In this document: positions 20,577-63,589 of the stretch, one piece after another
Position numbering within the stretch: position 1 is the stretch's first letter
Layout of the letters: each line of letters starts with the position of its first letter
Source of the DNA: Candidatus Methanoperedenaceae archaeon
GTDB lineage: Archaea > Halobacteriota > Methanosarcinia > Methanosarcinales > Methanoperedenaceae
Direction of reading: 5' to 3'
Assembly (NCBI GenBank): GCA_963753595.1
Contig: CAVWCX010000024.1
Location: forward strand, 32,001 to 96,000
DNA: 64,000 bases
Position numbers and translations under genes: made by a program
Notes under the pieces: generated by a model
Told to the model about the DNA's origin: nothing
What the model saw: only the letters and a program-made list of their open reading frames with translations
The model's database searches: none

Positions 20577-22982
20577 GTGATTATGTTAGAAGATACAAGG
20601 CTGGTAAGATCAATAGAAAACCTCCTGGTGCACGATCATCTCTGTTTGATCTATGAAAATCAAAAAGAGCAGTTCGATGCCGTTATCCCGTTTATAAAGA
20701 TCGGATTGGGCAGGGGTGAAAAATGCATTTATATCGCTGATGATAACACTGCCGGGCAGGTCCTTAACGCCATGCGCGCCGACGGGATCGATGTTGAATC
20801 GGCATTGAATAAAGGCGCACTTGTTATTGCCACCAAAAAGGAGACATATCTAAAACAGGGTTATTTCGATCCTGATGAAATGATCCGGTTCCTGAAAGTT
20901 GCCACGGATTCTGCAAAAAAAGATGGATTCCCTGCTTTAAGAGTTACAGGCGAGATGACATGGGTACTTGGTAAAGATCCGGGAAGCATGCGGTTAATGG
21001 AATATGAATCAAAACTCAACCTCTTTTTCCCTGTAAATGATTGCCTTGCTATATGCCAGTATAATAAAAACCGCTTCGATCCTGATATAATAAAAAGAGT
21101 AATTAATACTCATCCATTAATCATTGCGGGGGGATTTGTCTGCAGGAATTTCTATTACATCCCTCCTGAGGAATTCCTGAATAAGGAAAAGGGATCACTT
21201 GAAGTGGAGCGCCTCCTGTCCAATCTTATTGACCGCGAAAAAGCAGAAGAGAAAATCAAGGAGGCACAAAAGGTGCTTGATCGCCAATATGCAGAAAAAT
21301 CAGAAATCTTCAATGCCATAGGGAATTTGACATTGCTCCTTGATCCGAAACACAATATATTAGCAGCAAATCGTGCCGCAGTAACCGGATTAGGAAAAAC
21401 CGAAGAAGAACTCAGGGGTAAGAAATGCTATGAATTTTTACACGGAACCAGCCAGCCCCCAGAATCCTGCCCAATGGAAAAAATGCTGCGATCCAATAGT
21501 ATGGAGACATCTGAAATGGTGGTGGAAACCCTGAATGGGACATATCTTGTATCATGCACACCGCTATTTGATGAAAAAGGTAATCTGGAGAAGGTCATCC
21601 ACATAACCACAGACATCACAGAGCGCAAGCGGGCAGAAGAGGCATTAGAGGAAAGCCAGTCAAGATTCAAAAGCATCTACCAGCAGTCGCCTTTAGCAAT
21701 AGAACTGTATGATTCAAAGGGTTTACTGATCGATGCAAATCCCAAATGCCTGGAAATGTTTGGTGTGAGTGATATCCATAAAATCATTGGATTCAGGCTT
21801 TTTGATGATCCAAATATCTCAGATGAGCTTAAAATGAAAATTGGCCATGGGGAAGTAGTAACGTTTGAAAGCGAATTTGATTTTGATGCTGTAAAAAAAA
21901 TGGGGCTGTATGAGACCTCCAGATCCGGCCGGATTTATATTGATTGTACAGTATCCCCCTGGAAAATTGCAGACACTGCCCGGGGGTTTCTGGTGCATGT
22001 CGTGGATATCACACAGCGCAAGCTGATGGAAAAAGCGTTGCAGAAGAGTGAGAAAAAATACCGCACTATTGTTGAGACTACCAATGAAGGCATCTGGATG
22101 CTGGACGCATCATCGAAAACGAGCTATGTAAATTCGCGGATGGCTCAAATGCTCGGCTATGAGCCGGAGGAAATGCTCGGTAAGTATTTATTAGATTTTA
22201 TGGATGCTGATGCGCGCATTGATGCGCAAAAGTATCTGCAAAGACGTAAAGAGGGAATTAAAGAAGATCATGATTTCAGGTTTTCCAGGAAAGATGGAAC
22301 AGACCTGTGGACTATTATCTCCACAAGTCCGGTATTTGACGATAAAGGACACTATGTTGGAGCATTGGGGATGATGGTTACTGATATCTCGCAGAGAAAG
22401 CAGACAGAAGAGAAGTTGAAACAGAGTGAAGAGAAATTCAGGCAGCTTACTGAAAAGTCTATTGTCGGCATCTACATCATCCAGGATGGAAAAATGACCT
22501 ATGTCAATCCAAGCTGTGCAAAAGTATTCGGGTATTCATCTGAAGAAATCAATGGAAAGCTCAGTCCTGAAGATCTAATACACCCTGACGATATCAAGGT
22601 TGTTATGAGAAAAATGAAGGAAAGGCTGGAAGGTAAAATCGAAATAACTAATGATGTATATAAGGCCCTAAGAAAAGACGGTTCCCTGATCTATATTGAA
22701 GTCTATGGCATGGTGATCGATTATCAGGGCAGTCCTGCTGTGATGGGAACTTTGATAGATATCACCCAGCGCAAAAAGATAGACGAGGAACTAAAGAAAC
22801 ACCGCGAGCATCTCGAAGAACTGGTCAAAGAGCGCACCCTGGAGTTGAATCAGAAGAATGAAGAACTTGAAAAGTTTAACAAGCTCTTTGTGGGGCGGGA
22901 ACTTCGGATGATGGAACTTAAAAAGAGGATCGAAGAACTTGAAAAAAAGATAGGTTCACCTGAAAACACAAAGGTGACTTGA
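20577..22982 (+). CDS. MEDS plus 4 PAS sensor with GREL tail, no kinase domain
   Basis: HDHLCLIY...LRVTGEM...ICQY (MEDS); four PAS/PAC units ending DIT/DIS; conserved tail. Confidence 0.85.
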   Translation: MIMLEDTRLVRSIENLLVHDHLCLIYENQKEQFDAVIPFIKIGLGRGEKCIYIADDNTAGQVLNAMRADGIDVESALNKGALVIATKKETYLKQGYFDPDEMIRFLKVATDSAKKDGFPALRVTGEMTWVLGKDPGSMRLMEYESKLNLFFPVNDCLAICQYNKNRFDPDIIKRVINTHPLIIAGGFVCRNFYYIPPEEFLNKEKGSLEVERLLSNLIDREKAEEKIKEAQKVLDRQYAEKSEIFNAIGNLTLLLDPKHNILAANRAAVTGLGKTEEELRGKKCYEFLHGTSQPPESCPMEKMLRSNSMETSEMVVETLNGTYLVSCTPLFDEKGNLEKVIHITTDITERKRAEEALEESQSRFKSIYQQSPLAIELYDSKGLLIDANPKCLEMFGVSDIHKIIGFRLFDDPNISDELKMKIGHGEVVTFESEFDFDAVKKMGLYETSRSGRIYIDCTVSPWKIADTARGFLVHVVDITQRKLMEKALQKSEKKYRTIVETTNEGIWMLDASSKTSYVNSRMAQMLGYEPEEMLGKYLLDFMDADARIDAQKYLQRRKEGIKEDHDFRFSRKDGTDLWTIISTSPVFDDKGHYVGALGMMVTDISQRKQTEEKLKQSEEKFRQLTEKSIVGIYIIQDGKMTYVNPSCAKVFGYSSEEINGKLSPEDLIHPDDIKVVMRKMKERLEGKIEITNDVYKALRKDGSLIYIEVYGMVIDYQGSPAVMGTLIDITQRKKIDEELKKHREHLEELVKERTLELNQKNEELEKFNKLFVGRELRMMELKKRIEELEKKIGSPENTKVT

Positions 22983-23012
22983 AATAATGAAATATGGGGT
23001 TAGTGAATAGGA

Positions 23013-23489
23013 ATGAGAAATGAAATAAAACAAAACCAGCTTGTTGTTTTTTCGATAGATGAGCATCGATATGCTCTCCCCCTCTTTACCGTAGAAAGGA
23101 TCGTCCGCGCGGTTGAGGTAACTCCCCTGCCAAAAGCGCCGGAAATGGTCACTGGAATTGTCAATGTGCAGGGACAGATAATTCCGGTCTTGAGTCTTCG
23201 CCAGCGCTTTGGCTTACCCGTCCGGGAAATTGGACTGAATGACCAGTTAATTGTTACACGCACAAAAAAACGCTATATCGCATTTATAATAGACGCTGCC
23301 ATCGATGTGGTCGAATTCCCGGAAAATGAGGTTATCCAGGCTGAGGAAATTCTCCCGGACATGGAATATGTCCTTGGATTAATAAAACAGGATGACGGCT
23401 TGATCCATATCCTGGACATCGATTCAATTCTTTCCTCAGGAGAGGGCGGATCGCTGGATATCGCAATGGATACAGGAGGTAAAACCTGA
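23013..23489 (+). CDS. cheW: CheW
   Basis: TPLPKAP...GIVNVQGQIIPV. Confidence 0.88.
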   Translation: MRNEIKQNQLVVFSIDEHRYALPLFTVERIVRAVEVTPLPKAPEMVTGIVNVQGQIIPVLSLRQRFGLPVREIGLNDQLIVTRTKKRYIAFIIDAAIDVVEFPENEVIQAEEILPDMEYVLGLIKQDDGLIHILDIDSILSSGEGGSLDIAMDTGGKT

Positions 23490-24985
23490 TGTCCGGGATT
23501 TCAGAAAGCCTTCTCGCACAACTTGCTGGTTTTGTCGGCGCTCGCACAGGTTTACATTTTGAAAAGGAACGCATGAATGATCTCGAAAATAGAATTAAAT
23601 CTGCCGCAGCCGATTATGGCTTCAAGGACGTTGAAGAATGCATCAAATGGCTCGTTACTTCACCTTTGACAAAGCAGGAAATTGAGATACTTGCAAGCCA
23701 TCTTACAGTTGGAGAAACATATTTCTTCCGGGAAATAAGATCTTTTGAAATTCTTGAAAGAGATATATTTCCCACGCTGATCCGCTCCCGTATTGGAAAT
23801 GAAAAGCAAATGAGGATATGGAGCGCAGGTTGTGCCACAGGCGAAGAACCGTATTCTATTGCAATGTTGCTCAAAAAAATGATCCCGGATCAAAAGGATT
23901 GGAGCATTACCATTTTAGCTACAGATATTAATCCTCATTTCCTGCAAAAAGCCCGGGATGGCTTTTACAGGGAATGGTCGTTCCGTGATAGTCCTGGATG
24001 GATCAGGAAGTATTTTGAAAAAACAAAAGAGGGATACGGGATCCTTCCGGAAATAAAGGATATGGTGACATTTTCTTATCATAACCTCGCAGAAGACTCA
24101 TATCCGACACTGCTGAACAATACGAATGCTATGGACATTATCCTTTGCCGGAATGTATTGATGTATTTCTCGCATGAGCGTACAAAGCAGGTTGTCCGGG
24201 CTTTTTACCAATGCCTTGTGGACAATGGCTGGCTTGTAGTAAGCCCTGTCGAAGCTTCCGATGTCCTGTTTTCACAATATGCAACCGTAAATTTCAAAGA
24301 TGCGATCTTCTACAGGAAAGATATCAGTAAGTCCCGGGAGAAAGAAGAATTTATTCCAGATGAGATTCGCTATCCTGTGCATGAGGAAACCTGGATTGCC
24401 CCGGTTGCGCTTGTTCCTGAACAGCCCCTTGCAGCCCCTGGAAAAAAAACAGGGCCTGTCACAAAGGAGCGAAAAATAACAGGACAGGAAACAGCCTATA
24501 ATAAGGCCATATTGCTTTACGGGCAGGGAAAATATAAGCAGGTAATTGAACTGCTTGAGGGCCTGCCAGCACCCGATACAAAAACCATGGTTCTTTTAGC
24601 AAAAGCCTTTGCAAACTCCGGGAAATCAGCCAGGGCGCTTGAGTGGTGTGAAAAAGCTCTCGTAATTGACAAACTTAATTCAAGCTCCAATTATCTCCAT
24701 GCCATGATATTGCAGGAGCGCGGGCAGGTTGAAGAAGTGGTTAAATCGCTAAAACGCGCGCTTTATCTTGACCAGGATTTCATCCTTGTACATTTTGCCC
24801 TGGGGAATCTTGGCAGGCAGCTTGGAAAAACCAGGGAATCGAACAGGCATTTTGAGAATGCGCTTCTTCTTTTAAAGAGGTGGAAGTACGATGAAGTCCT
24901 GCCCGAATCAGAAGGTATCACTGCCGGCCGTCTCTCTGAGATCATAACGACAATTAAAGGAAAGGAGATTTTACATGAACGGTAG
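23489..24985 (+). CDS. cheR: CheR methyltransferase with C-terminal TPR (WspC-like)
   Basis: VGETYFFRE, WSAGCATGEEPYS, CRNVLMYF; TPR with RALYLD. Confidence 0.92.
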   Translation: MSGISESLLAQLAGFVGARTGLHFEKERMNDLENRIKSAAADYGFKDVEECIKWLVTSPLTKQEIEILASHLTVGETYFFREIRSFEILERDIFPTLIRSRIGNEKQMRIWSAGCATGEEPYSIAMLLKKMIPDQKDWSITILATDINPHFLQKARDGFYREWSFRDSPGWIRKYFEKTKEGYGILPEIKDMVTFSYHNLAEDSYPTLLNNTNAMDIILCRNVLMYFSHERTKQVVRAFYQCLVDNGWLVVSPVEASDVLFSQYATVNFKDAIFYRKDISKSREKEEFIPDEIRYPVHEETWIAPVALVPEQPLAAPGKKTGPVTKERKITGQETAYNKAILLYGQGKYKQVIELLEGLPAPDTKTMVLLAKAFANSGKSARALEWCEKALVIDKLNSSSNYLHAMILQERGQVEEVVKSLKRALYLDQDFILVHFALGNLGRQLGKTRESNRHFENALLLLKRWKYDEVLPESEGITAGRLSEIITTIKGKEILHER

Positions 24986-25505
24986 CATATCTCCCGAAGA
25001 TAAGAAAAAAATCCTCAGGGCAAGAGCAAGATCCCTCGCGCAACAACCCGAAAAGATGCAGGAGGATGAACATATCGAAATTGTGGAATTCCTGCTTGCA
25101 AATGAAAAATACGGCATACAGTCAATCCATGTTCGTGAGATTTATCCACTGAAGGAACTCACGCCAGTACCTTGCACGCCCCGGTTTGTTGCCGGAATTA
25201 TTAATGTCCGCGGAAAAATCCTTTCAGTCATTGATATCAAGAAATTTTTCGGGCTTCCGGAAAAGGGGAATGGAGAGCCCAACAAAGTGATCATAATTCA
25301 TGGTGAGATGATGGAATTTAGCATTCTTGCAGATGCCATTCTTGGTACAAGCCAGATACCGGTCCGGGAAATCCAGCCATCTCTTCCAACATTTGCCGGC
25401 ATACGCGCACAGTACCTGCTGGGAGTGACAAAAGAGCAGCTTGTGGTTCTTGATGCGCAGAAGATACTATTTGACAAAAAGATCGTCGTTCATGAGGAGA
25501 TTTAA
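24975..25505 (+). CDS. cheW: CheW (WspD-like)
   Basis: ILRARARSLA N-terminus; TPVPCTP...GIINVRG. Confidence 0.88.
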   Translation: MNGSISPEDKKKILRARARSLAQQPEKMQEDEHIEIVEFLLANEKYGIQSIHVREIYPLKELTPVPCTPRFVAGIINVRGKILSVIDIKKFFGLPEKGNGEPNKVIIIHGEMMEFSILADAILGTSQIPVREIQPSLPTFAGIRAQYLLGVTKEQLVVLDAQKILFDKKIVVHEEI

Positions 25506-25556
25506 ATATCTTATATATAAATATAAATTTGATAAATATGAGTCGGGGTTAAAACT

Positions 25557-27023
25557 ATGAATATAAGTAAGAAAATAATCGGTGGATACATCGTTGTATT
25601 GGTACTGATGATAATAGCTGTTTCAACAGGATATTATTCAATCAATGTAGTTGATAAAAATTACAACAAATTACTTGATGTCGATGAAAAGCAAATTCAA
25701 AATAGTGGCAGACTCAAGTTATTTGTGGAAGAACAAAAAGCCGATTATCGGGGCTTATTAGTTTACAGGGATGATCCAAAAACATATCTGGATTCATTGT
25801 ATGAAAGCCGTGAACTGTTCGATGATGCTCTCACCGAGGCGCAAAAATCCGAATTATCAGAAAATGATCTGGAAAGTCTTGAGATACTGAAGAACATTGC
25901 TAATCTCCAGGATAAGTTTAAACAGGAACAGGAAACAATAATCTCGCTGATCAATGCAGGGAAACGTGAAGAAGCTATTAATATCAGTAATGAGATCCGG
26001 CCTGTAAGGGCTGAATTAATAGCTGAAATTGACAAATATGTTTCCTCAAATGAGAGAAAAGAGGCAGAATCCCTTGCAAGAATCATTTCCACAAATTCAC
26101 GGCTTTCGCTCCTGATGATCGTCAGTTCGATCATAGCACTTATTGCAGGATTGGCCATTGGATTCTATATTACGCGTTCTATTAACAATCAATTGCGTGA
26201 AGCTATTACGCAAATATTCACCGCATCATCAGAAATACTGGCAACTACGACACAGCTGGCATGCAACGCTTCTGAAACTGCCACATCTGTAAATGAAACG
26301 ACAGTGACTACAGAGGAAGTAAAACAAACAACTTTACTTTCCGGTGAAAAATCCAGGTATGTATCAGAGATCGCCCAGAAAGCAGCGCAGGTTGCGCAAA
26401 AGGGAAATAATGCGATAGCACAGAATGTGGAAGCAATAGGTAAGATCAAAGGACAGACTGAGCTGGTTGCGCAAAGCATTGTAAAACTAAGTGAGCAAAG
26501 CCAGTCAATAGGGGATATTAATACAACAGTTAACGATCTGGCTGAACAGTCAAATCTCCTGGCTGTCAATGCAGCAATTGAGGCGGCAAAAGCCGGTGAA
26601 CAGGGAAAGGGGTTTGCAGTTGTAGCTGGGGAGATCAAGATACTGGCCGGGCAATCAAAGCATGCGACTGCGCAGGTGCGGTCTATACTTGCCGATATTC
26701 AGAAAGCTACGAATGCGGCTGTGATGGCTATTGAGCAGGCAAGCAAAGCAGTGGAAGCCGGGGTGAACCAGGCAACAACAGCAGGTGAATCTATACAGGA
26801 TTTAACCGAGACGATCATGGAGGCATCGCAGGCTGCCACCCAGGCTGCGGCGTCAAGCCAGCAGCAGCTTGTTGGAATAGACCAGATTTCTAAAGCCATG
26901 GAAAACATAAAACAGGCAACCCAGCAAAATGCAGTTGGCACCAGGCAGGCAGAAAAAGCAGCCCAGAACCTCAACGAACTTGGAAGGACACTGAAAAATG
27001 TAGTGGAGGATAGTAAAGCTTGA
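25557..27023 (+). CDS. Methyl-accepting chemotaxis protein
   Basis: 2 TM, helical sensor domain, AEQSNLLAVNAAIEAAKAGEQGKGFAVVA hairpin. Confidence 0.95.
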   Translation: MNISKKIIGGYIVVLVLMIIAVSTGYYSINVVDKNYNKLLDVDEKQIQNSGRLKLFVEEQKADYRGLLVYRDDPKTYLDSLYESRELFDDALTEAQKSELSENDLESLEILKNIANLQDKFKQEQETIISLINAGKREEAINISNEIRPVRAELIAEIDKYVSSNERKEAESLARIISTNSRLSLLMIVSSIIALIAGLAIGFYITRSINNQLREAITQIFTASSEILATTTQLACNASETATSVNETTVTTEEVKQTTLLSGEKSRYVSEIAQKAAQVAQKGNNAIAQNVEAIGKIKGQTELVAQSIVKLSEQSQSIGDINTTVNDLAEQSNLLAVNAAIEAAKAGEQGKGFAVVAGEIKILAGQSKHATAQVRSILADIQKATNAAVMAIEQASKAVEAGVNQATTAGESIQDLTETIMEASQAATQAAASSQQQLVGIDQISKAMENIKQATQQNAVGTRQAEKAAQNLNELGRTLKNVVEDSKA

Positions 27024-27035
27024 AGGGATCAAAGC

Positions 27036-29198
27036 ATGGATAAAAAGGAAGAAGAGTTTCTCAAGAAACTTCTCTCAACATTTAAAATCGAGGCAAAAGA
27101 GCACCTGGATGCAATAACTTCAGTCCTGATCGAGCTTGAAAAAGCTACTTCCGGAAAGGAGATGGAACTTATTGAAACGGTCTTCAGGGAAGCACACAGC
27201 CTCAAAGGTGCAGCCCGTTCCGTAAATTTAAAAGATATTGAGTCACTTTGCCAGTCAATGGAAAATATATTTGCATCGTTGAAACGCAAAGAGATTGCCC
27301 CCTCCCCACAAATATTCGACGTGCTTCATATTGCTGCTGATTATATCAGCAGACTGATAGCCAGGGAAGAAGAAATAAATATTCCAGAAAAAACTAAGAT
27401 CAAGGAAATTATCCATGACCTCGAAAGCATATTAAAAGGCGTTCCAATTCAACAACGCGAAAAGTCACTGGTTGAAGAGGAACCTGAAAAAACAGACGAA
27501 TCCCAATCCTCGCCATCGGTAGAAACTGTCAGGATCTCTACGGCAAAATTAGACTCGCTCTTATTCCAGGCAGAAGAGATGCTTTCTGTAAAACTTTCAG
27601 CAGGCCAGCAAGCAGTTATGTTGCGAGAGAGTGCAGCCTCTTTTGCAGTATGGAAAAAAGAATTTGAACATATAAAGCCCGATTTTGCGATGCATGATTT
27701 CATAAGATCACTTGAAACCAGGTTAACACTGCTTGCCAGGACCGCTGAATATGACAACAGGCACTTTGGGGGAATGGTGGACAATCTGCTTGGTGATATG
27801 AAAAGTGTGCTGATGCTGCCATTCTCATCACTTTCAGGGGGTTTCCCAAAGCTTGTCCGTGACCTTTCGCATGACAGGGGTAAAGAAGTGGAACTGATAA
27901 TTGAAGGAGAAGATATCGAAATCGACAGGCGGATCCTGGAAGAAATGAAAGACCCGCTCATTCACTTATTAAGAAATTGCATCGACCATGGCATTGAAAA
28001 GCCTGATGAACGCAGGCTTATGAAGAAAATGCCATGTGGAACCATCAGGCTTGCCTTAAATTCAAGAGATGGCAGCAAGATCGAGATCAAGATATCAGAT
28101 GATGGGGCTGGGATCGACGCTTCACTGATAAAGTCTGCTGCCATAAAGCGCGGTATCATAACCCATGAAAAAGCCGGAAAACTCAATGATGAGGAGGCTC
28201 TCTCACTTATTTTCAAGTCAGGGATTTCCACAAGCCCGATCATTACTGAAGTTTCAGGAAGGGGGCTTGGCCTTGCAATAGTTTACGAGAAAGTGGAAAA
28301 ACTGAACGGGATCGTTTCTTTCCAGACACGGGTAGGTATCGGGACAACATTCAGGATCATTGTTCCTCTTACCCTTGCTACATTCAGGGGATTATTAGTC
28401 CAGGTGAACGAACAGCTTTTTGTTCTTCCGGTGACAAATGTTGAAAGAGCGTTAAGGGTCAGGAATGACCAGATAAAAACCATGGAGAACCGCGAAACCA
28501 TTACTCTTAACGGTGAGGTCATTTCACTTGCCAGGCTTGGGAATGTCCTGGAACTTCCCGGAAAAAATAAGAGCGATCCTGATAAGAACACACAGATAGC
28601 GATCCTTGGGTCTTCCGGGAAACACATTGCGTTCACTGTGGATGAAATCCTTAACGAACAGGAAGTGCTGGTGAAAAGCCTGGGCCGGCAGCTGTCTCGT
28701 GTACGAAATATTTCCGGTGCAACTGTGCTTGGAAGCGGCAAGGTTGCGCCAATCCTGAATGTTCATGATCTACTAAAGTCAGCAGTGAAGGGATCTGATG
28801 CCGCCACACCTGTTGTGACAGAAGCAAAGACTAAAAGAAATTCTGTGCTGGTAGCGGAAGATTCGATAACATCAAGGACTTTACTTAAGAATATTCTGGA
28901 AACTGCCGGTTATGATGTCAAAACAGCGGTTGATGGTGTGGATGCTTTTACTCTATTAAAAAACCAGGAGTTTGATTTAGTGGTATCTGATGTGGATATG
29001 CCAGGGATGAACGGGTTTGAGCTCACGGCGAAGATCCGCGCCGATAAAAAGATATCAGAGCTGCCGGTTGTACTTGTTACCGCGCTTGAATCCCGTGAAC
29101 ATAAAGAGCGAGGGATAGCGGTAGGGGCAAATGCATACATCGTGAAAAGCAGTTTTGACCAGAGCAATTTGCTTGAAGTTATCCAGAGGTTGATATGA
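27036..29198 (+). CDS. cheA: CheA-receiver hybrid (WspE-like)
   Basis: REAHSLKG (Hpt), HLLRNCIDHG, DDGAG, SGRGLGL, CheW domain, C-terminal REC. Confidence 0.95.
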   Translation: MDKKEEEFLKKLLSTFKIEAKEHLDAITSVLIELEKATSGKEMELIETVFREAHSLKGAARSVNLKDIESLCQSMENIFASLKRKEIAPSPQIFDVLHIAADYISRLIAREEEINIPEKTKIKEIIHDLESILKGVPIQQREKSLVEEEPEKTDESQSSPSVETVRISTAKLDSLLFQAEEMLSVKLSAGQQAVMLRESAASFAVWKKEFEHIKPDFAMHDFIRSLETRLTLLARTAEYDNRHFGGMVDNLLGDMKSVLMLPFSSLSGGFPKLVRDLSHDRGKEVELIIEGEDIEIDRRILEEMKDPLIHLLRNCIDHGIEKPDERRLMKKMPCGTIRLALNSRDGSKIEIKISDDGAGIDASLIKSAAIKRGIITHEKAGKLNDEEALSLIFKSGISTSPIITEVSGRGLGLAIVYEKVEKLNGIVSFQTRVGIGTTFRIIVPLTLATFRGLLVQVNEQLFVLPVTNVERALRVRNDQIKTMENRETITLNGEVISLARLGNVLELPGKNKSDPDKNTQIAILGSSGKHIAFTVDEILNEQEVLVKSLGRQLSRVRNISGATVLGSGKVAPILNVHDLLKSAVKGSDAATPVVTEAKTKRNSVLVAEDSITSRTLLKNILETAGYDVKTAVDGVDAFTLLKNQEFDLVVSDVDMPGMNGFELTAKIRADKKISELPVVLVTALESREHKERGIAVGANAYIVKSSFDQSNLLEVIQRLI

Positions 29199-30259
29199 AC
29201 GAAAAGATAAATGTCCTTGTTGTTGAAGATTCCCCGGTCGCGAGGGAATTATTAGTCCATATTCTAAGTTCTGATCCTGGAATACAGGTTATTGGTACTG
29301 CAAATAATGGGGAGGAGGCTATCAAAGCAACAAAACGCCTTTCTCCGGATGTTATCACCATGGATATTTACATGCCAAAAATGGATGGGTATGAGGCGAC
29401 CAGGAGGATAATGGAAATCCAGCCTACTCCCATAGTCATTGTGACAGCCAGCCCAAGCATAAAAGAAGTATCTATGGCAATGCGCATAATTGAAGCAGGC
29501 GCGGTTGCGGCTGAACAAAAACCAGGAGGCTCTGGTCATACAGACTATGATGCTGATGCCTCAAGATTGATCCGGACAGTTAAACTGATGTCCAGGGTAA
29601 AAGTGATAAAACGCTGGGCCAGAAGGGAAATGTTTAAACATGAAGAAGAAAGACCCGGACCATTGCCAGAACCCAGGCTCGTAGCTATAGGAGCTTCTAC
29701 GGGTGGCCCTCCTGTTCTCCGGACGATTTTATCCAGTCTCCCAAAAAATTTTCCCGTTCCGGTGTTGATAGTCCAGCACATAGCACCTAATTTTATTGAA
29801 GGTTTTGTGGAATGGCTGGGCCAGACGTCCTCCATACCTGTTCATGTAGCTACCCAGTATGCGCAAATTATTCCAGGGCATGCTTATCTTGCGCCTGATG
29901 GATTCCAGATGAAACTTGATAACTACAATAGAATATCCCTTACCGGGGATGAAACAATGAATGGTCTTCGACCTTCGGTTTCATACCTGTTTAATTCTGT
30001 TGCGAAGGTTTATGGGAGGAATGCCATAGGTATATTGCTCACAGGAATGGGAAAAGATGGGGCAAATGAGTTAAAATTATTGAAAGAAATGGGCGCGATA
30101 ACGATAGTCCAGGATATGGAAAGCTGTGTTGTTAATGGTATGCCAGGTGAAGCAATAAACCTTGATGCAGCCATATTTGTTCTTCCGCCGGAAAAAATTG
30201 CCTCTGTAGTAACAGGCCTGGTAAATAAGACGCTGGATAACCGGGGAGTTAATGTATGA
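29195..30259 (+). CDS. cheB: CheB methylesterase
   Basis: REC plus GASTGG, VQH, RPSV, TGMGKDGA. Confidence 0.95.
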   Translation: MNEKINVLVVEDSPVARELLVHILSSDPGIQVIGTANNGEEAIKATKRLSPDVITMDIYMPKMDGYEATRRIMEIQPTPIVIVTASPSIKEVSMAMRIIEAGAVAAEQKPGGSGHTDYDADASRLIRTVKLMSRVKVIKRWARREMFKHEEERPGPLPEPRLVAIGASTGGPPVLRTILSSLPKNFPVPVLIVQHIAPNFIEGFVEWLGQTSSIPVHVATQYAQIIPGHAYLAPDGFQMKLDNYNRISLTGDETMNGLRPSVSYLFNSVAKVYGRNAIGILLTGMGKDGANELKLLKEMGAITIVQDMESCVVNGMPGEAINLDAAIFVLPPEKIASVVTGLVNKTLDNRGVNV

Positions 30260-31107
30260 ATTCAAATAACGGCGAAGAAATACTGATCGCGGAAGATAGC
30301 CCCACACAGGCGCAGATGTTAAAATTCCTGCTTGAGAAACATGATTACCGCGTTCTGGCCGCAAACAATGGAAAGGAAGCCCTGGCAATGATAAAGACAC
30401 GTAAGCCCGCTCTTGTCATAAGCGATATCGTAATGCCTGAAATGAATGGTTATGAACTTTGCCGGCATATAAAAAAGACTGATAACCTGAAAGATATTCC
30501 TGTTATCCTCCTGACAGCGCTTAGCGATCCTGATGATGTTCTCAAAGGCCTGGAATGCGGGGCAAATAACTTCGTAACAAAGCCGTATGAAGAAAAACAC
30601 CTTGTATCGAGAGTGCAATCCATTCTTTCGAACAGGATGCAACAAAAGAATGAAACCATACAACCTGGTATCAAAATATTATTTGGCGGTAAGGAGTATA
30701 ATATTACTGCACAACCCAGGCAGATCCTTACTCTTCTTCTTTCCACATATGAAGCAGCAGTCCAGAAAAACCTGGAACTTGCGAAGGCACAGGATGAATT
30801 AAGGAATTTAACCCTGGATCTTGAGAAAAAGGTGGAAGAGCGTACGATCCAGCTCAAATCAGCCAATGACCAGCTTTCGCAGGATATCATCGAGCGAAAG
30901 CGAATTGAGGAAGAGCTGCAAAAACACCGCGATCATCTGGAGGAACTGGTCAAAGAACGCACCGGGGAGCTGAATCAGAAAAATGAAGAACTTGAAAAGT
31001 TTAACAGGCTCTTCGTGGGACGGGAACTCAGGATGATCGAACTTAAAAAGAGGATCGAAGAACTTGAAAAAAACACCGCATCACCTGAAAACACAAAGGC
31101 AGGTTGA
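30256..31107 (+). CDS. Response regulator: REC plus coiled coil plus GREL tail
   Basis: AEDS, SDIVMP, TKP; no output enzyme domain. Confidence 0.88.
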   Translation: MNSNNGEEILIAEDSPTQAQMLKFLLEKHDYRVLAANNGKEALAMIKTRKPALVISDIVMPEMNGYELCRHIKKTDNLKDIPVILLTALSDPDDVLKGLECGANNFVTKPYEEKHLVSRVQSILSNRMQQKNETIQPGIKILFGGKEYNITAQPRQILTLLLSTYEAAVQKNLELAKAQDELRNLTLDLEKKVEERTIQLKSANDQLSQDIIERKRIEEELQKHRDHLEELVKERTGELNQKNEELEKFNRLFVGRELRMIELKKRIEELEKNTASPENTKAG

Positions 31108-31111
31108 AATT

Positions 31112-32998
31112 ATGAGAAATATCTTAAAACAAAACCTTTTTCAAAATCCTGTTTTGAAGGATATGGCCTGGATAGCAAGTATCGCTGTTATATATTTCAT
31201 TGTTGGAAACCTGAGCCTGGAATTATTATTTAAACCGGAAGGCATTGCTGCGGTCTGGCCGAATTCCGGTATTTTCCTTTCAGCCATCCTCTTAACACGG
31301 CGAAAACTTTTGCCCTATCTTATCGGGACGCTTTTTATAACCGATCTTATTATTGAAATGCTTGCCGGTTCACCGTTTAATGTGAGCTTTGTGTATGCAT
31401 TTGCCCTTACTTTTGACGCATCTTTAAGTGCCTGGCTTCTCACCAGGTTTACCGGAGGGCAGGTTACTTTTGACAGGGTAAAACATGTATTCGGATTTAT
31501 CGCCCTTTCAGTCATATTCAGTAATGCCCTGGCAGCAACTATTGCTTCGCTTGCCCCATATTTGCTCCTTGGCAAGTCCTTCTGGAATTCATGGATGTTG
31601 TGGTGGTCGTCGGACGCAGTCGGAAATTTATTAATTACCCCTTTTGTCCTGAGCCTGGCATCAATGGACATGGCCCGGTTATGGAAATCGGATATTAAAC
31701 GGACGGCTGAGGCGGTGATTTTTTTTGTATCTATCATAACTATAAATTTTTTTGCTTTGCAGAGGTTTGGGGGTAATATTGATTTATTCTCTGTCATTAA
31801 TTATTTGACTTTTCCATTCCTGATATGGGCAGCGATACGTTTTGGGATACGGGGAGTAACTTTTGCTTCAGTCGTCCTTACAGCTAATATCTTATATTTT
31901 ATCCTTCGAAGCCAAATCTTGCCTCTCAGCGGATCCATGTTAAACTCGGTAATTATGGTTCAATTGTACATAGCCATAATTTCAGCCTCATCCCTCATTC
32001 TGGCTTCAGTTTACACTGAACGCAGGCAGGCAGAACAGGAACTGCAAATTGCGCTCATAAAGTACAAAACGCTGTTTAACGCCTTCCCATTGGGGATTAC
32101 CGTGGCTGACCAGGCGGGTAATATCCTGGAAAACAACCAGATGGCTGAAAAACTGCTTGGCCTGTCACAGGAAGAACAACACCAGCGTAAGATTGATGGA
32201 AAAGAGTGGACTATCGTGAGACCGGATGGAACACCCTTAGAGGTCCAGGAATACGCCAGCGTCCGGGCACTCCGGGAAAATCGCATTGTGGAAAATATGG
32301 AGATGGGCATCGTAAAAGCCCGCAACGAGATCACTTGGATAAATGTCACCGCTGCCCCTTTGCCGCTGGATGGGCACAATGTGGTGATTACCTATAACGA
32401 CATTACCCGGCGCAAGCAGGCTGAAGCCGATCTGCATTTACTGAACGAGACTTTAAAGGCAGCACAGAACATGGCAAAAGTTGGATACTGGACATTTGAT
32501 ATTAAGACCAGAATGCCAATATGGTCTGAACAAATGTTCGTGGTTTTTGGATTGGACCCAAGAAATGGCGTGCCGCACTATGACGAGCACAGGAAGATCT
32601 GGCATCCCGATGACTGGGAACTGTTCAATAATTCAGTGCAAGAATGCGAAAAAGGCAAATCCTACAATATCGTAGTTCGCGTCATCTTCCCCGATAAATC
32701 TACACATTATATCAATACCCAGGGATTCCCCCGTTATAATGAGAAAGGCGAGATATACGAATTATTCGGAACTTCACAGGACATCACAGAGCACAAGATT
32801 GCGGAAGAAGAACTGCTAAAACACCGCGAACATCTCGAGGAACTTGTCAAAGAGCGCACCGCGCAAGTGAATCAGAAGAATGAAGAGCTTGAAAAGTTCA
32901 ACAAGTTCTTTGTAGGGCGTGAACTCAAGATGATAGAACTTAAAAAGAAGATAGCAGAGCTTGAGAAAAAGATCGCGTCACCTGTAAAGGAGGAATAA
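31112..32998 (+). CDS. MASE1 plus 2 PAS sensor with GREL tail
   Basis: VWPNSG, WWSSDAVG, PFLIWAAIRFG (MASE1); HPDD PAS; start MRNIL. Confidence 0.85.
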   Translation: MRNILKQNLFQNPVLKDMAWIASIAVIYFIVGNLSLELLFKPEGIAAVWPNSGIFLSAILLTRRKLLPYLIGTLFITDLIIEMLAGSPFNVSFVYAFALTFDASLSAWLLTRFTGGQVTFDRVKHVFGFIALSVIFSNALAATIASLAPYLLLGKSFWNSWMLWWSSDAVGNLLITPFVLSLASMDMARLWKSDIKRTAEAVIFFVSIITINFFALQRFGGNIDLFSVINYLTFPFLIWAAIRFGIRGVTFASVVLTANILYFILRSQILPLSGSMLNSVIMVQLYIAIISASSLILASVYTERRQAEQELQIALIKYKTLFNAFPLGITVADQAGNILENNQMAEKLLGLSQEEQHQRKIDGKEWTIVRPDGTPLEVQEYASVRALRENRIVENMEMGIVKARNEITWINVTAAPLPLDGHNVVITYNDITRRKQAEADLHLLNETLKAAQNMAKVGYWTFDIKTRMPIWSEQMFVVFGLDPRNGVPHYDEHRKIWHPDDWELFNNSVQECEKGKSYNIVVRVIFPDKSTHYINTQGFPRYNEKGEIYELFGTSQDITEHKIAEEELLKHREHLEELVKERTAQVNQKNEELEKFNKFFVGRELKMIELKKKIAELEKKIASPVKEE

Positions 32999-32999
32999 C

Positions 33000-34871
33000 A
33001 TGGATAATTTGACTGAATCAAAGAAGGTTATGGTAAAGCATCCACTTCGTATGGCTTTGACTGCCCCCTTCGTGATGATCATTATTGCGACTGTCGGGCT
33101 CACAGGTTATATCGCTTTTATAAATGGACAGGCAGCCGTAAACAATATAGTGGAACAACTTTTCTCCGAAATAGAGATTCGCGTGGAACAACACATGGAC
33201 AGTTACCTGGGCACCGCCTTTATGATCAACCAGTTAAACCTGAATTCAGTATTATCAGGACGGTCAAACAGCAGTGAACTGGAAGATTTGGCTCAAAATT
33301 ACTGGGAAAGGGGGCTATTGTTCCCGGGTTTCGGAACAATGGGTTTTGGAAATGACAAAGGTGAAATCGCCGGGTCTAACGATGTGAACAAAATAATGGT
33401 GATAGCCAATCAATCGCCAACAGGTATAGTCCTTCACCGCTATGCTGTTGGAGATGATGGGAAACGAACTGATAAAATAGTGAGCGAGACGCGAAATTAT
33501 GATGCCCGCACCAGGAGCTGGTATCAAACCGGTGTTAAGGCAAAACAGCCGGCATGGACTGAAATCAACGCTGCTCTGGCAGGACCATGGCTTGCCCTTT
33601 CGGCTGTGACGCCATATTATGGAAAGGATAATGGTCTTATTGGTGTATTTTATACCGATGTTCCACTTTTGCAAATAAACCAGTATCTACAAAATATAAC
33701 CATTAGCCCTCATGGACAGATGTTCATCATGGAGAACAATGGCTTAATTGTAGCATCGTCCACTCCCGAGCAGCCTTACCTCATCACAGGTGACCAGATA
33801 GAAAGGCTTAATGCATCTTCCAGTTCCCAGCCGCTGATCGCTTCTGCTGCGCGGTATCTCACGGGGCAGTTCGATGTGGGCAAAATACCCAACCATTACA
33901 AATCCTCTTTTGACTTCCAGGGAGAGAGACATTTTGTGCATGTCAATTCCTACAATGACGCGCGGGGGTTGGATTGGAAGATCGTAATGGTTGTTCCTGA
34001 GTCGGACTTTATGGCACAAATCACTCAAAACAATCGCAACACCCTTGTGTTCATCATTATATCAGCGCTTTTTTCAGTAATCGTATCGGCTCTCCTGGCT
34101 CGCCGTATCACTCGTCCGATAACAAATCTATCCCGATCCGCAAAAGCACTGGCCAATGGTGATTATGATCAAAAGCTGGAGATAAAAAGTGAGGATGAAT
34201 TAGGGGAATTGACTGGTGCCTTCAATGTCATGGCTGTAAAACTCAAGGAAAATACGGTCTCGCTGCAAGAAAGCGAAGAGCGCTTCCGTGCACTGGTTGA
34301 GCAGGCACCCGAAGCAATACTTGTTCTTGATTGTGATAATTTCATGTTCGTGGATGCCAATAAGAAAGCTGAGGAGCTGTTCGGATGCAGGCGCGAAGAA
34401 CTCCTCAAATCCGGGCCACAACAGTTCTATACCTCAAACCAGTTTGATGAGAAGCCAGTTTCCCAGACGATGCAGGAAAAAACACAACGGGCGCTTGCAG
34501 GAGAAACGGTGAGTTATGAGCGGCTAGTCAAAAGCACCGATGGCAAAGAACATTTATGCCAGGTGTGGCTGACGAGATTACCTTCTGCAGATCGAAAATT
34601 TGTCCGTATCAGTTATATTGATATTACCGAAAGCAAGCGGGCGGAAGAAGAAGTGCGAAAATACCGCGAACATCTCGAGGAACTGGTCAAAGAGCGCACT
34701 GCACAAGTGCATCAGAAGAATGAAGAGCTTGAAAAGTTTAACAAGTTCTTTGTGGGGCGTGAACTCAAGATGATAGAACTTAAAAAGAAGATAGCAGAGC
34801 TTGAGAAAGAGATAGGGGACCTGAAGAAATCTGTGGAAAATGATGTAAAGGAAGTGGGACACAATGATTGA
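33000..34871 (+). CDS. dCache-HAMP-PAS sensor with GREL tail
   Basis: 2 TM, YDARTRSWY (Cache), RPI...DELGELTGAFN (HAMP), PAS. Confidence 0.85.
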   Translation: MDNLTESKKVMVKHPLRMALTAPFVMIIIATVGLTGYIAFINGQAAVNNIVEQLFSEIEIRVEQHMDSYLGTAFMINQLNLNSVLSGRSNSSELEDLAQNYWERGLLFPGFGTMGFGNDKGEIAGSNDVNKIMVIANQSPTGIVLHRYAVGDDGKRTDKIVSETRNYDARTRSWYQTGVKAKQPAWTEINAALAGPWLALSAVTPYYGKDNGLIGVFYTDVPLLQINQYLQNITISPHGQMFIMENNGLIVASSTPEQPYLITGDQIERLNASSSSQPLIASAARYLTGQFDVGKIPNHYKSSFDFQGERHFVHVNSYNDARGLDWKIVMVVPESDFMAQITQNNRNTLVFIIISALFSVIVSALLARRITRPITNLSRSAKALANGDYDQKLEIKSEDELGELTGAFNVMAVKLKENTVSLQESEERFRALVEQAPEAILVLDCDNFMFVDANKKAEELFGCRREELLKSGPQQFYTSNQFDEKPVSQTMQEKTQRALAGETVSYERLVKSTDGKEHLCQVWLTRLPSADRKFVRISYIDITESKRAEEEVRKYREHLEELVKERTAQVHQKNEELEKFNKFFVGRELKMIELKKKIAELEKEIGDLKKSVENDVKEVGHND

Positions 34872-37732: not shown

Positions 37733-38506
37733 ATGGTAAATGAAAAGATCCTGATCGTTGAAGACGAAGGCATTGTTGCCATGCATATACAGAACAGCCT
37801 GAAAAACCTGGGCTATAACGTTGTTGGTATAGCTTCTTCAGGTGAAGAAGCCATTGAAATGGCAAAAAAAAATCGCCCGGATATGGTGCTTATGGACATC
37901 GTATTAAAAGGGATGATAGACGGCATAGAAGCTGCAGACAACATCCGTAACAATTTTAATATCCCGACGGTCTTTCTTACAGCCTATGGTGATGAAAGCA
38001 CATTGAACAGGGCTAAAATAACCGAACCTTTTGGGTATTTGCTTAAACCATTTAAAGAACGGGACTTGCATATTGCCATTGAAATCGCTATATACAAGCA
38101 TAGAATTGAGTCCAGGTTAAAAGCAATAGACCGGTTCCTTTCCACTATACTGAAAAGCATAGGCGACGCAATTATTACCACTGATAAAAAGGGATTAATT
38201 ACGTTTTCTAATTCTGCTGCCGGAGGAATGACAGGATGGGATATGGAAGAAGCAGTAAATAAAAATATTACTGATATATTTAATATTGTCAATGAACGAA
38301 CACATGTTCCATTTGAAAATCTTGCGGACAGGATAATTCGTGATGGAGTTGATCTTGACCTTCCGCCAGATACAATACTAATTTCAAGGGATGGGAAAGA
38401 ACTACCTATTGAGGGAAGAGGAGCCCCCATGATGGATGAAAAAGGCGAAATTGAAGGTATGATATTTAGTTTCAGGGATATCACCGGTCGAGGGAAGATA
38501 AAATAG
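37733..38506 (+). CDS. REC-PAS response regulator
   Basis: VEDE, MDIVL, FLTAY, KPF, then PAS. Confidence 0.88.
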   Translation: MVNEKILIVEDEGIVAMHIQNSLKNLGYNVVGIASSGEEAIEMAKKNRPDMVLMDIVLKGMIDGIEAADNIRNNFNIPTVFLTAYGDESTLNRAKITEPFGYLLKPFKERDLHIAIEIAIYKHRIESRLKAIDRFLSTILKSIGDAIITTDKKGLITFSNSAAGGMTGWDMEEAVNKNITDIFNIVNERTHVPFENLADRIIRDGVDLDLPPDTILISRDGKELPIEGRGAPMMDEKGEIEGMIFSFRDITGRGKIK

Positions 38507-43426: not shown

Positions 43427-44973
43427 CATTGGTCATCGGTTAAGCCCACCAGTCATCCCTGAACCGATGTCTACTGACATGGGGATCAAGTGCCTGACTT
43501 GAATAGACATTCATAACAGTCAGAATAGTTCTTTCAATCCCATAATACCGAAGTATCAGAGTAAGCTGTTTATCAGCATTTTCGGCAAAAATCGTACTCC
43601 ATCGCAATTGTGTAAAACGAGAACCAATATCTTTTGGATTATACTTCCGAACTAACGAATATATTCTCCTGCTTACTAAAAGGGTAAGAATCGATATCCA
43701 GATAAAGGCTTCGATAATTTGTGTGTTCTTTGTATTCACAACATCAAGAGCGTATCTGCTTTTCAGTTCTTTAAAGATCAGTTCAATATCCCATCTTGCT
43801 CCATAGAGTTTCGCAACATCCTCAGCCTCCAAAACATCTTTTGCAATATTAGTAAGATAGACATGATACTTTTCTTCATCTTCATTAAAAACCGCTACCA
43901 ATCGGAACTGTTCAGTATCCATTCTTGTCTTACTTTTCCCATTATAATTCGGTTTCTTGAATGAGACCTCAACTTCAACATCGAGTACTTGTCTTTTTAA
44001 CTTGGGGAGAATTTCACTGATATATTTCCCTTTCACATCAATACTATTCCCCCGACACGTATTATGCACATCAACAATAAGAGGATCCGCACTTCCTTTC
44101 AATCTGGACACGAAGTAACCGCCATTCTCCTTGATTTTAGCAAAGAGTAGATGTTTGTAGAAACCAAGATCGATAAGAAGAATTCTATCTTTTATCCATG
44201 GACCTATTCGCAGAGTCTTCAATTCATTTGTACTTTCAGGATGAATAGTGATGCTTTTTGGGCTGTTTGCCACGGCACTTACCAACAAACTCACTTTAAC
44301 GCCAGCTGCTACCGTTCTGGAACGTGCTGCCGGGAATTTTTTAGCAAGAGACTTATGCAATCTGATAATTGTGCTGTCCTGTATCATTACATCCTGGAAT
44401 TTAGCTATTTTTTCATTGAGAACTTTGGTTTGTTCCTTAGCAAGCTGTTCAATTCCATGAGTTACACATAGCCTCAGGAATGCAACAAGTTCAGGTGTGA
44501 ATCTTTCATACCAGCTGCTGTCGCTCAGTTTTTTATTGGAAAACTTTTCATAATTCCGTTTGACAAAGGCTAGATTTCTTGCAAGGCGAACACCATAACT
44601 ATTGACAAGAACCCAAAACATTTCTACGGCTGTCACTTTTCTCTCTCTTTCTATGAGGCCGGTTTCTTTTGCTGCTTGTTTCAGCCATTCTGGAGGGAAT
44701 AGTGTGTAGAGGTCTTTTTCAATTATATCGGGGTCATAAGATGGGATTTTTGTGTTTGGTTCTTTGGGCTTTTTCATGCTACTGATCCTCTTTCTAATTT
44801 TAATACAGTAAAATTAGAATTTTTAAGTAATATATGCATGCTAAGACGATAAATGCTTCGCTATATAACGATTATTTCAACTGGAAACCCAAAGCTATTG
44901 ACTAAAAACGAGTAATTCTGCAATCTTTTTTGAGATAATTCATTGAGCAGAATTCCTTAACCGATGACCAATG
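43427..44973 (-). mobile_element. IS4 family (ISH8-like) insertion sequence, copy 1
   Basis: 18-bp TIR CATTGGTCATCGGTTAAG; 10-bp TSD AATATGAAAC. Confidence 0.93.
43440..44777 (-). CDS. IS4-family DDE transposase
   Basis: QDST, IDLGF, YGARWDIELIFKELK (YREK motif). Confidence 0.93.
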   Translation of the reverse strand: MKKPKEPNTKIPSYDPDIIEKDLYTLFPPEWLKQAAKETGLIERERKVTAVEMFWVLVNSYGVRLARNLAFVKRNYEKFSNKKLSDSSWYERFTPELVAFLRLCVTHGIEQLAKEQTKVLNEKIAKFQDVMIQDSTIIRLHKSLAKKFPAARSRTVAAGVKVSLLVSAVANSPKSITIHPESTNELKTLRIGPWIKDRILLIDLGFYKHLLFAKIKENGGYFVSRLKGSADPLIVDVHNTCRGNSIDVKGKYISEILPKLKRQVLDVEVEVSFKKPNYNGKSKTRMDTEQFRLVAVFNEDEEKYHVYLTNIAKDVLEAEDVAKLYGARWDIELIFKELKSRYALDVVNTKNTQIIEAFIWISILTLLVSRRIYSLVRKYNPKDIGSRFTQLRWSTIFAENADKQLTLILRYYGIERTILTVMNVYSSQALDPHVSRHRFRDDWWA

Positions 44974-63527: not shown

Positions 63528-63589
63528 TATTTTTCCCATCGTTTATTTTTCAATTTGAATAACCGTATGAAAACAGAATCCGAAGCAAT

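Follow-up and report, generated by a model that had tools for sequence, protein, structure and literature searches.

The window analysed here is a stretch of 64,000 nucleotides (nt) from a Candidatus Methanoperedenaceae archaeon (GenBank assembly GCA_963753595.1, contig CAVWCX010000024.1, positions 32,001 to 96,000). Between positions 20577 and 38506 it contains twelve genes, all on the + strand and, according to the map of open reading frames (ORFs), overlapping or separated by gaps of 0-52 nt. In the first half of this operon the order is MEDS-4PAS-tail, CheW, CheR-TPR, CheW, methyl-accepting chemoreceptor (MCP) and CheA-REC, and in the second half it is CheB, REC-tail, MASE1-2PAS-tail, dCache-HAMP-PAS-tail, MEDS-4PAS-HisKA_2-HATPase and REC-PAS. 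The element considered here is the tail, a helical segment of about 50 residues that is shared by four of the encoded proteins. The closest relatives of the studied proteins are found in Candidatus Methanoperedens or Methanoperedenaceae.

The operon starts with P0001 (20577..22982, +), a protein of 801 amino acids (aa) with a MEDS domain and four PAS domains (Pfam), whose tail core, comprising the ERT motif of a signalling helix (S-helix) and the GRELRM segment, is encoded at 22797..22946 (+). The REC-tail protein (30256..31107, +; 283 aa) has a REC domain, a long helix and the tail, as seen from Pfam and from an AlphaFold2 (AF2) model, and its core, the second copy, is at 30922..31071 (+). 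The MASE1-2PAS-tail gene (31112..32998, +; Pfam), for which there are two candidate starts, ATG at 31112 and possibly TTG at 31064, has the third copy at 32819..32968 (+), and the gene for the protein with dCache_1, HAMP and PAS domains (33000..34871, +; Pfam) has the fourth at 34659..34808 (+). The original prediction, made from the letters alone, was that four different sensors end in one tail encoded by nearly identical DNA, and this is borne out by the ORFs, by the named domains and by the helix of about 50 residues, as well as by the 150-nt cores, whose pairwise DNA identity is 83-95%. The DNA immediately upstream of the cores does not align between the copies.

The consensus in all four tails is KHR.HLEELVKERT..(L/V)(N/H)QKNEELEKFN(K/R)(L/F)FVGREL(R/K)M.ELKK.I.ELEK, and when the four copies are compared, 38 of 50 columns are invariant, ERT included. 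Two subtypes can be distinguished: the MEDS and REC tails have ..LFVGRELRM.ELKKRIEELEK..SPENTK, and the MASE1 and Cache tails have ..FFVGRELKMIELKKKIAELEK. A six-frame scan of the 64 kb with GRE[LMIV][RK]M finds exactly four sites, which are the four tails. The pairwise dN/dS ratio (nonsynonymous to synonymous substitution rates) of the cores is 0.08-0.17, at dS values of 0.21-0.89, in agreement with the purifying selection that had been expected for the tail. Clearly, the shared tail is a real, selected module, and the likeness between its copies is far beyond chance.

The family to which these tails belong is large. A profile of the four window tails, searched against 1.84 billion cluster representatives, matches 8,764 clusters when the cut-off is E <= 1e-3 and 849 when it is E <= 1e-10; the first number is an upper bound, because P0225, a non-member with five S-helix repeats and no tail, reached E = 1.5e-14 on S-helix repeats alone. 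Among the best 150 matches, for which the architecture was viewed, the tail is C-terminal in 148, the exceptions being P0225 and P0237, which has about 130 hydrophobic residues beyond the tail and is the sole true member examined with a non-terminal tail. The tail is also terminal in all 119 listed relatives (P0062 included). At all 42 genomic tail loci the protein ends 12-38 residues past the motif, and for all members examined except P0237 this distance is 12-62 residues. The hosts include the archaeal families Methanoperedenaceae and Methanosarcinaceae and, among the bacteria, Bacteroidota, Chlorobiota, Cloacimonadota, Desulfobulbaceae and other Deltaproteobacteria, Nitrospirae, Spirochaetes, Lentisphaerae, Verrucomicrobia, Delongbacteria and Neomarinimicrobiota. 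All loci are from metagenome-assembled genomes (MAGs), which cover at least ten phylum-level groups and include many related Bacteroidales.

The domains that precede the tail are diverse and, apart from the CheB-CheR case given below, of the input type only. In 121 representatives these are PAS (68), REC (14), HAMP (9), GAF (8) and PocR (6), and more rarely SBP_bac_3, Tll0287-like and dCache (3 each) and MEDS and TPR (2 each), when considering the 25 commonest of 50 families. Kinase cores are absent: in a phmmer comparison with HisKA_2 and HisKA kinase cores none of 240 members is matched, the only match among the 241 proteins being the non-member P0225, and in the four tail proteins of the window no Pfam match at E <= 0.1 is found for HATPase_c, HisKA, GGDEF, EAL or HD. 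The earlier statement that these sensors have no catalytic output is therefore correct for the window; elsewhere it does not hold, since there are CheB-CheR-PAS proteins that end in the tail. These occur within a sub-variant of the family, having ..ELKKEVNELC.Q.G.PPRY, in which the core is frequently present without ERT. In proteins of this sub-variant that are longer than 698 aa, the tail is terminal and a kinase is lacking in 24 of 24; 12 of the 24 have CheR, and 10 of those 12 also have CheB (CheB-CheR-PAS..-tail fusions; P0367-P0385). The CheB-CheR part, which is placed at the N terminus, is the sole enzymatic exception among the tail proteins. An occurrence of the tail inside longer kinases is not supported by these 24 proteins.

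CheR genes also adjoin tail genes at three loci (L017, L030 and L044), which raises the question of whether the tail accepts methyl groups or serves CheR/CheB enzymes as a tether. Methyl-accepting helices have a consensus of Glu/Gln pairs with small residues on their flanks, and the EE pairs of the tail, viewed by eye, have no small flanking residues; given the association with CheR/CheB, the tail may still be methylated. Six short sequences with a Met start (P0159, P0174, P0192, P0182, P0129 and P0141; 57-84 aa) contain little beyond the S-helix and the tail, and in locus L063 a tail ORF of 51 codons (7391-7546) is out of frame with the preceding PAS ORF; such small ORFs may be free-standing tails, fragments or frameshifts.

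Neither Pfam-A (2025) nor NCBIfam (2026) has a model that covers the tail. The isolated tail has only sub-threshold matches, to coiled-coil or linker segments, namely of TorS (22 bits) and of a NosR-family REC-HD-GYP linker (E = 3.7e-4), both far below the cut-offs of those models. Among the PDB sequences there is no tail match below E = 0.075, the best being an unrelated FVGR motif of a TPR protein. With the tail as query the ESM Atlas returns unnamed clusters only, a Foldseek search with the REC-tail model returns REC domains only, and plasmid records give no match. The annotated names of the relatives are generic ('PAS domain S-box protein', 'response regulator', 'hypothetical protein'), and full-text literature searches with the tail motif strings, which had most subscription journals outside their scope, return no relevant paper; for the CheB-CheR fusions, too, the literature search gives unrelated matches only. 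This agrees with the original prediction that the tail is not an already characterised domain, being uncovered in Pfam, NCBIfam and the PDB sequences; it is apparently a large, unnamed C-terminal module of kinase-less sensors.

The core of the module can be written as NEEL.(K/R)FN..(F/A)V(G/D)RE(L/F)(R/K)(M/I).EL(K/R), within a segment of about 35-50 residues that mostly follows an ERT signalling helix. In the AF2 model of the REC-tail protein, which is a monomer predicted from a 7-sequence alignment, the REC domain (residues 8-132) is followed by a hairpin of low confidence and by one helix (residues 154-274) that is unbroken at the Gly of the GRE motif, with a predicted local distance difference test score (pLDDT) of about 86-97 over residues 171-270. 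A helix-turn-helix at this Gly is disfavoured for now by this predicted single helix. In 233 distinct tails the heptad a positions (V, L, L, F, M, I) are hydrophobic in 94-100%, and the d positions are L, L, R (of ERT), K, F, R (of GRE), L and L. With its Arg at a d position, GRE follows the same buried-Arg logic as ERT, three heptads further on. Each of the 16 positions from -6 to +9 around the Gly has more than 2.4 bits; these include hydrophobic residues outside the core (L at g-3, V at b-1, L at f+3, I at b+6) and polar surface residues (N-5, E+7, K+9). Conservation on all faces of the helix suggests that this is not a plain two-stranded coil and that further helices would pack against it.

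The first half of most tails, HLEELVKERT.EL, corresponds to the S-helix, as had been proposed: like the S-helix of Anantharaman, Balaji and Aravind (2006), it belongs to a heptad segment of about 40 residues with ERT, the Arg being at a core d position, and in 233 distinct tails this Arg is kept in 207 and the Thr in 202. In the available part of the original description, the S-helix is found 'almost always between two signaling domains' (PMC1592074), so that a terminal copy, as seen here, is unusual. The S-helix differs from the tail in being interdomain, and the GRELRM segment is absent from that part of the description (PMC1592074).

The relation with the histidine kinases becomes apparent from a locus scan with the S-helix half of the tail as query, which yielded 42 loci with a tail as well as 35 controls, where the same helix, KHR.HLEELVKERT, leads into something other than the tail. 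In 16 controls a HisKA H-box is found within 75 residues of this helix. Counted from the Arg of ERT, the His lies 20 residues away in 8 of these 16 kinases and 34, 48 or 55 residues (20 + 7n) away in the others; of the 42 tails, 36 have the Gly/Asp 20 residues from this Arg, three have it at 13 residues and one at 34. The N.ELE.F motif is common to the tails and the kinases, in the same register (..ERT.EL...NKELEAFSYSVSHDLRAPL versus ..ERT.EL..KNEELEKFNKLFVGRELRMIEL). Because this register is shared without an offset, it is Gly (in some members Asp or Asn), and not Arg, that occupies the position of the phospho-His; in 233 distinct tails this position is Gly in 209, Asp in 17 and Asn in 4. The original alignment of the tail with the H-box, with an offset of one residue and with Arg in place of His, thus holds for the linker and for N.ELE.F, which are in register, but not for the offset nor for the Arg, and the similarity stops at the F.

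This is also in agreement with the profile comparisons. When the tail is compared with the kinases by hhalign, the first 29 columns are shared with a probability of 98.4%, ending at the F before the H-box, and without the S-helix 8 columns are aligned with a probability of 6%; homology with the H-box sequence is rejected on this latter result, and the positional equivalence is retained. The H-box pattern, ..SH(D/E)L(R/K).PL, occurs in none of 240 family members, and neither the four proteins nor the isolated tail have a Pfam match at E <= 0.1 with HisKA, HisKA_2, HisKA_3 or HATPase_c. In comparison with HisKA (PF00512), the tail has the linker, the start of helix 1, N.ELE.F, the distance of 20 residues from ERT to the key position and the heptad register in common, whereas it has Gly/Asp for His and lacks the Pro-kinked helix end, the ATPase and helix 2, by which a four-helix bundle is completed in the HisKA dimer. 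The tail does not count as a HisKA domain, since the His, the second helix, the ATPase domain and a match to the model are all absent. Judged by its sequence, it can be regarded as a positional stand-in for helix 1 of the dimerisation and histidine phosphotransfer (DHp) domain, and not as a detectable homologue of the H-box.

The exchange of the kinase core for a tail is seen within the window. The BLASTP alignment of P0001 with the kinase P0005 (34864..37728, +; MEDS, four PAS, HisKA_2 and HATPase_c; Pfam) has 35% identity over 776 aa and ends at ERT.EL; P0001 is therefore a collinear, kinase-less paralogue of P0005, sharing the MEDS domain, the four PAS domains and ERT.EL, after which the one has the tail and the other the HisKA_2 core. 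Together with the REC-tail proteins, as compared with the WspH-like REC-kinases, and with the CheB-CheR-PAS fusions, this shows the tail as an alternative to the core formed by the DHp and the catalytic and ATP-binding (CA) domains. The scaffolds on which the tail replaces DHp-CA are MEDS-PAS, REC, CheB-CheR-PAS and Cache-HAMP-PAS.

The P0005 gene encodes the sole complete histidine kinase of the operon outside the Che proteins, which makes it a candidate receiver of the signals of the tails. Of the partners in trans named in the original prediction, the MEDS domains and the kinase at 34864, it is work with kinases that is supported by the gene order, whereas docking of the tails would be a further step. 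Its start overlaps by 8 nt with the stop of the dCache-HAMP-PAS-tail gene, and it is followed by the last gene of the operon, which encodes a response regulator with REC and PAS domains (37733..38506, +; Pfam). The kinase orthologues in locus L001 have the same arrangement, the REC-PAS gene likewise following the kinase. An overlap between the stop of a tail gene and the start of a kinase gene is present in the window, in L001 and in L007.

Across the 42 tail loci, in which the ORFs were called greedily, a kinase with an H-box lies within 5 kb in 28, and additional loci have HisKA_2 kinases. Two or more tail genes within 5 kb are found in 15 of the 42 loci, and three in a row in L015, L018, L034 and the window. 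The 83 operonic neighbours (same strand, gap below 250 nt, at most two genes per side, 40 loci with the host gene among the called ORFs) include 24 proteins with HATPase_c, 15 more with REC, about 20 that are sensor-only, three CheR and one CheB. Kinases of the NKELE.F.YSVSHDL subtype account for 8 of 15 directly adjacent kinases versus 4 of 26 farther ones in the same loci (Fisher p = 0.015), and seven of these eight are directly downstream on the same strand.

In the tail-adjacent kinases, NKELE.FSYSVSHDL is preceded by an unnamed linker motif, S.Q.AL.(F/Y/L)L(L/I/V)ED(V/M)N..R.EL (L004, L007, L015, L022, L033, L034, L035 and L041), and a similar segment is present in L039 and L048 as an insert of 35 residues (five heptads) between ERT and the H-box. 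A Gln/Glu-rich coil (ELQ.Q.EEL...SEEL.EQN.ELE.Q) precedes the H-box in hybrid kinases of L009, L017, L023 and L031 (1131-1135 aa) and of L022 and L030; two of the carriers adjoin CheR (L017 and L030), and these hybrid kinases may be methylated like chemoreceptors. The hybrid kinase of L044 (1216 aa), which is adjacent to CheR/CheB, has a different linker. In L026, a Bacteroidetes MAG, the gene directly downstream of a tail gene encodes a stand-alone MEDS protein (997-1611; 204 aa), and this is the sole hint of a MEDS-tail link outside Methanoperedens; MEDS, which precedes the tail in only 2 of 121 representatives, is unlikely to be a universal partner of the tail.

The remaining genes of the operon, all on the + strand and with domains as found in Pfam, form a chemotaxis-like set. 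They encode CheW (23013..23489), a CheR methyltransferase with C-terminal TPR repeats (23489..24985), the second CheW (24975..25505), a methyl-accepting chemoreceptor with 4HB_MCP_1 and MCPsignal domains (25557..27023), a hybrid CheA with Hpt, HATPase_c, CheW-like and REC domains (27036..29198) and CheB with REC and methylesterase domains (29195..30259). The REC-tail gene, which follows, stands where a Wsp-type cluster has its output response regulator.

The favoured reading, with a probability of roughly 40%, is that the tail proteins are accessory sensors that lack a kinase of their own and act through the tail on a histidine kinase nearby. A PAS, Cache-HAMP, MASE1 or MEDS input domain, or a REC domain that CheA has phosphorylated, would alter the twist or the register of the dimeric coiled coil, on which the segment that is conserved all round would bind or release the helices of a partner. 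The most likely partner would be the histidine kinase of an adjacent gene, contacted at its linker/DHp helices: the tail would either dock on the dimer of this kinase or pair with one of its subunits, serving as a decoy of helix 1 without the His. For the window this means that the REC-tail protein, which holds the WspR/WspH position, would be phosphorylated by CheA-REC, and that the kinase at 34864 would be the meeting point of the Wsp-like Che pathway (via REC-tail) with the MASE1, Cache and MEDS sensors; this kinase would in turn phosphorylate the REC-PAS protein encoded at 37733.

Several points weigh against this proposal. The neighbourhood counts lack a background control, genes for signalling cluster in any case and the loci are not independent; the Fisher test is post hoc, and 14 of the 42 loci have no kinase with an H-box within 5 kb. 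The kinase of the window is of the HisKA_2 type and not of the HisKA subtype that is enriched next to the tails, and the adjacent kinases are of several types, which is a poor fit to one very conserved docking surface. Heterodimers in register are not obvious either, because the adjacent SHDL-type kinases have the S.Q.AL..LLEDVN linker and no ERT. The RE pair in the logo of the 233 tails is imposed by the selection pattern; it is also invariant in pattern-free alignments. A complex prediction with two kinase cores (P0005 residues 700-954) and two Cache-HAMP-PAS tails, made without controls, gives 0.00 against a mark of 0.32 and weighs neither for nor against binding.

Given the tandem arrangement of tail genes in 15 of 42 loci, a doubtful but serious alternative is that the tails assemble with each other, as mixed dimers or as a four-helix dimer of dimers, into one composite sensor complex per array, in which REC-tail would be the phosphorylation-controlled member and the tail would make no contact with a kinase. 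Such an assembly would also account for the near identity of the tails within a genome, for the preservation of the subtype pairs in orthologues, for the hydrophobic residues outside a and d (g-3, b-1, f+3, b+6), which would suit a helix bundled with at least two others, and for the presence of REC-tail proteins among the representatives (14 of 121); however, in many loci a single tail gene lies beside a kinase (L004, L007, L024 and L036), and a closed complex of sensors would still be without output. It is unlikely that the tail is a structural cap, being the end of a coiled coil that stabilises the sensor dimer while the output goes through PAS, REC or other domains. The clean heptads, the one long modelled helix and the lack of enzymatic or DNA-binding features would suit such a cap, and effector-less sensors with a C-terminal helix, such as the short LOV proteins, are known, but N-5, G0, E+2, R+4, E+7 and K+9 are nearly invariant from archaea to Bacteroidota, and neither this invariance nor the two buried Arg residues and the fixed end point are needed for a dimerisation coil.

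Docking of a receiver is improbable: here the His-less helix would bind a (phosphorylated) single-domain response regulator and report its state, as the pseudokinase DivL does. The operonic neighbours are often single REC proteins (L001, L004, L011, L013, L020, L021, L022, L029 and L044), as is equally expected from the nearby kinases, and the tail has one helix, whereas the docking of a receiver on DHp generally uses both helices. That the tail proteins are decayed or truncated kinases, the tail being the leftover of a DHp domain in pseudogene-like remnants, is very hard to maintain. In its favour, the linker and N.ELE.F are kept in register and P0001 is paralogous to a full kinase, but the same end point is found in thousands of clusters from at least ten phylum-level groups, the dN/dS ratio is as low as given above, and GRELRM is better conserved than the linker and does not resemble an H-box. 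Also, there is no kinase remnant past the stops of the tails, because the next genes begin within about 30 nt or overlap. The original prediction that these genes are not simply truncated kinases is in agreement with the purifying selection and with the end of the proteins 12-62 residues past the motif, except in P0237.

Returning to the proposal of accessory sensors, a wider form of it is put forward tentatively: the tail may be an undescribed output module, a His-less stand-in for DHp helix 1, which would turn any input domain (PAS, GAF, Cache-HAMP, MASE1, MEDS, REC or CheB-CheR) into a plug-in sensor that would dock on histidine kinases, or pair with them, in trans, with arrays of tail genes providing many-to-one integration and the 150-bp repeats a means of sensor swapping. 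In the window, consecutive genes carry direct repeats of about 150 nt at their 3' ends, with a spacing of about 1.9 kb, and recombination between these repeats could delete or swap whole sensor genes in frame, as a route to sensor shuffling. In the REC-tail protein, a piece of 50 residues (about 195-244; 30838-30987; ..EERTIQ..DIIERKRIEEELQKHRDHLEELVKERTGELNQKN) resembles the end of a PAS domain and an S-helix, though this protein has no PAS domain. Exactly this piece is missing in the orthologues P0018 and P0019 (233 aa), and this suggests that the gene recombined, or underwent gene conversion, with a PAS-tail gene.

The sensory operon is directly followed, at 39170-41818 (+), by a gene for a protein of 882 aa in which COX1, FixO and two cytochrome c domains are fused; this is a cbb3-oxidase or nitric oxide reductase-like enzyme in an anaerobic methanotroph-like archaeon. 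The window also encodes TBP, ribosomal protein L15e and CofC. Two nearly matched DDE_Tnp_1 transposase genes, 43440-44777 (-) and 50138-51469 (-), encoding 445 and 443 aa (78.4 bits each in Pfam), flank a stretch of about 5 kb. Also present are another transposase gene (54610-55821), the genes of an integrase (5179-6009) and of an AbiEii toxin (55885-56676), and an S/M pair of type I restriction-modification (60343-63539).

The genomes of anaerobes encode very many PAS, GAF, HAMP and REC proteins without a recognisable output, and the route by which these signal is an open question. A conserved C-terminal helix on up to thousands of output-less sensors provides a testable handle on this question, by the binding of kinases, tails or receivers. 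If the helix does bind one of these, it would represent a new way in which several inputs, a chemotaxis-like pathway among them, are wired into a single phosphorelay, and many entries now named 'PAS domain S-box protein' or 'response regulator' could be annotated. For Methanoperedens, a 12-gene sensory operon is outlined beside a gene for a haem-copper oxidase-like protein.

Among the known systems, the Wsp clusters, chemosensory clusters of the alternative-function kind, are closest to the operon when considering its Che genes. In the available part of the published description, their terminal REC protein has a GGDEF (WspR) or a kinase (WspH) output (PMC8552884). The window likewise holds an MCP, two CheW, CheR, a hybrid CheA-REC, CheB and a REC protein with a helical stalk, with tight or overlapping junctions, but its terminal REC protein ends in the tail, having neither GGDEF nor a kinase. 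Also, the gene order is slightly changed, the MCP gene coming fourth after the two CheW and CheR genes, and three more tail sensors and a separate kinase are present. The design of the tail proteins resembles that of the short LOV proteins, described, in the part of the source at hand, as effector-less sensors with a C-terminal helix (PMC13322254). The likeness with short LOV and other effector-less PAS proteins, a sensor domain with a C-terminal helix and no effector, is one of design and not of sequence family, and it differs in that the GREL tail is common to many unrelated inputs, REC and CheB-CheR included. The C-terminal helices of the short LOV proteins are not known to have a family-wide conserved motif.

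The pseudokinase DivL, PsmA, AHP6 of plants, Sda/KipI and the Id-type helix-loop-helix proteins are phospho-dead mimics or anti-kinases. The likeness with these is in concept: the shape of a phosphorelay element, no phospho-acceptor and an action by binding. In DivL, as far as the accessible text of the source goes, the output domain of a kinase is repurposed for sensing the state of phosphorylation in a response regulator (PMC4211667), and the full DHp and CA domains are retained in both DivL and PsmA, again according to the parts of the sources at hand (PMC4211667, PMC12963549). None of DivL, PsmA, AHP6, Sda/KipI and Id shares sequence with the tail, and DivL and PsmA, unlike the tail, keep the DHp and CA domains.

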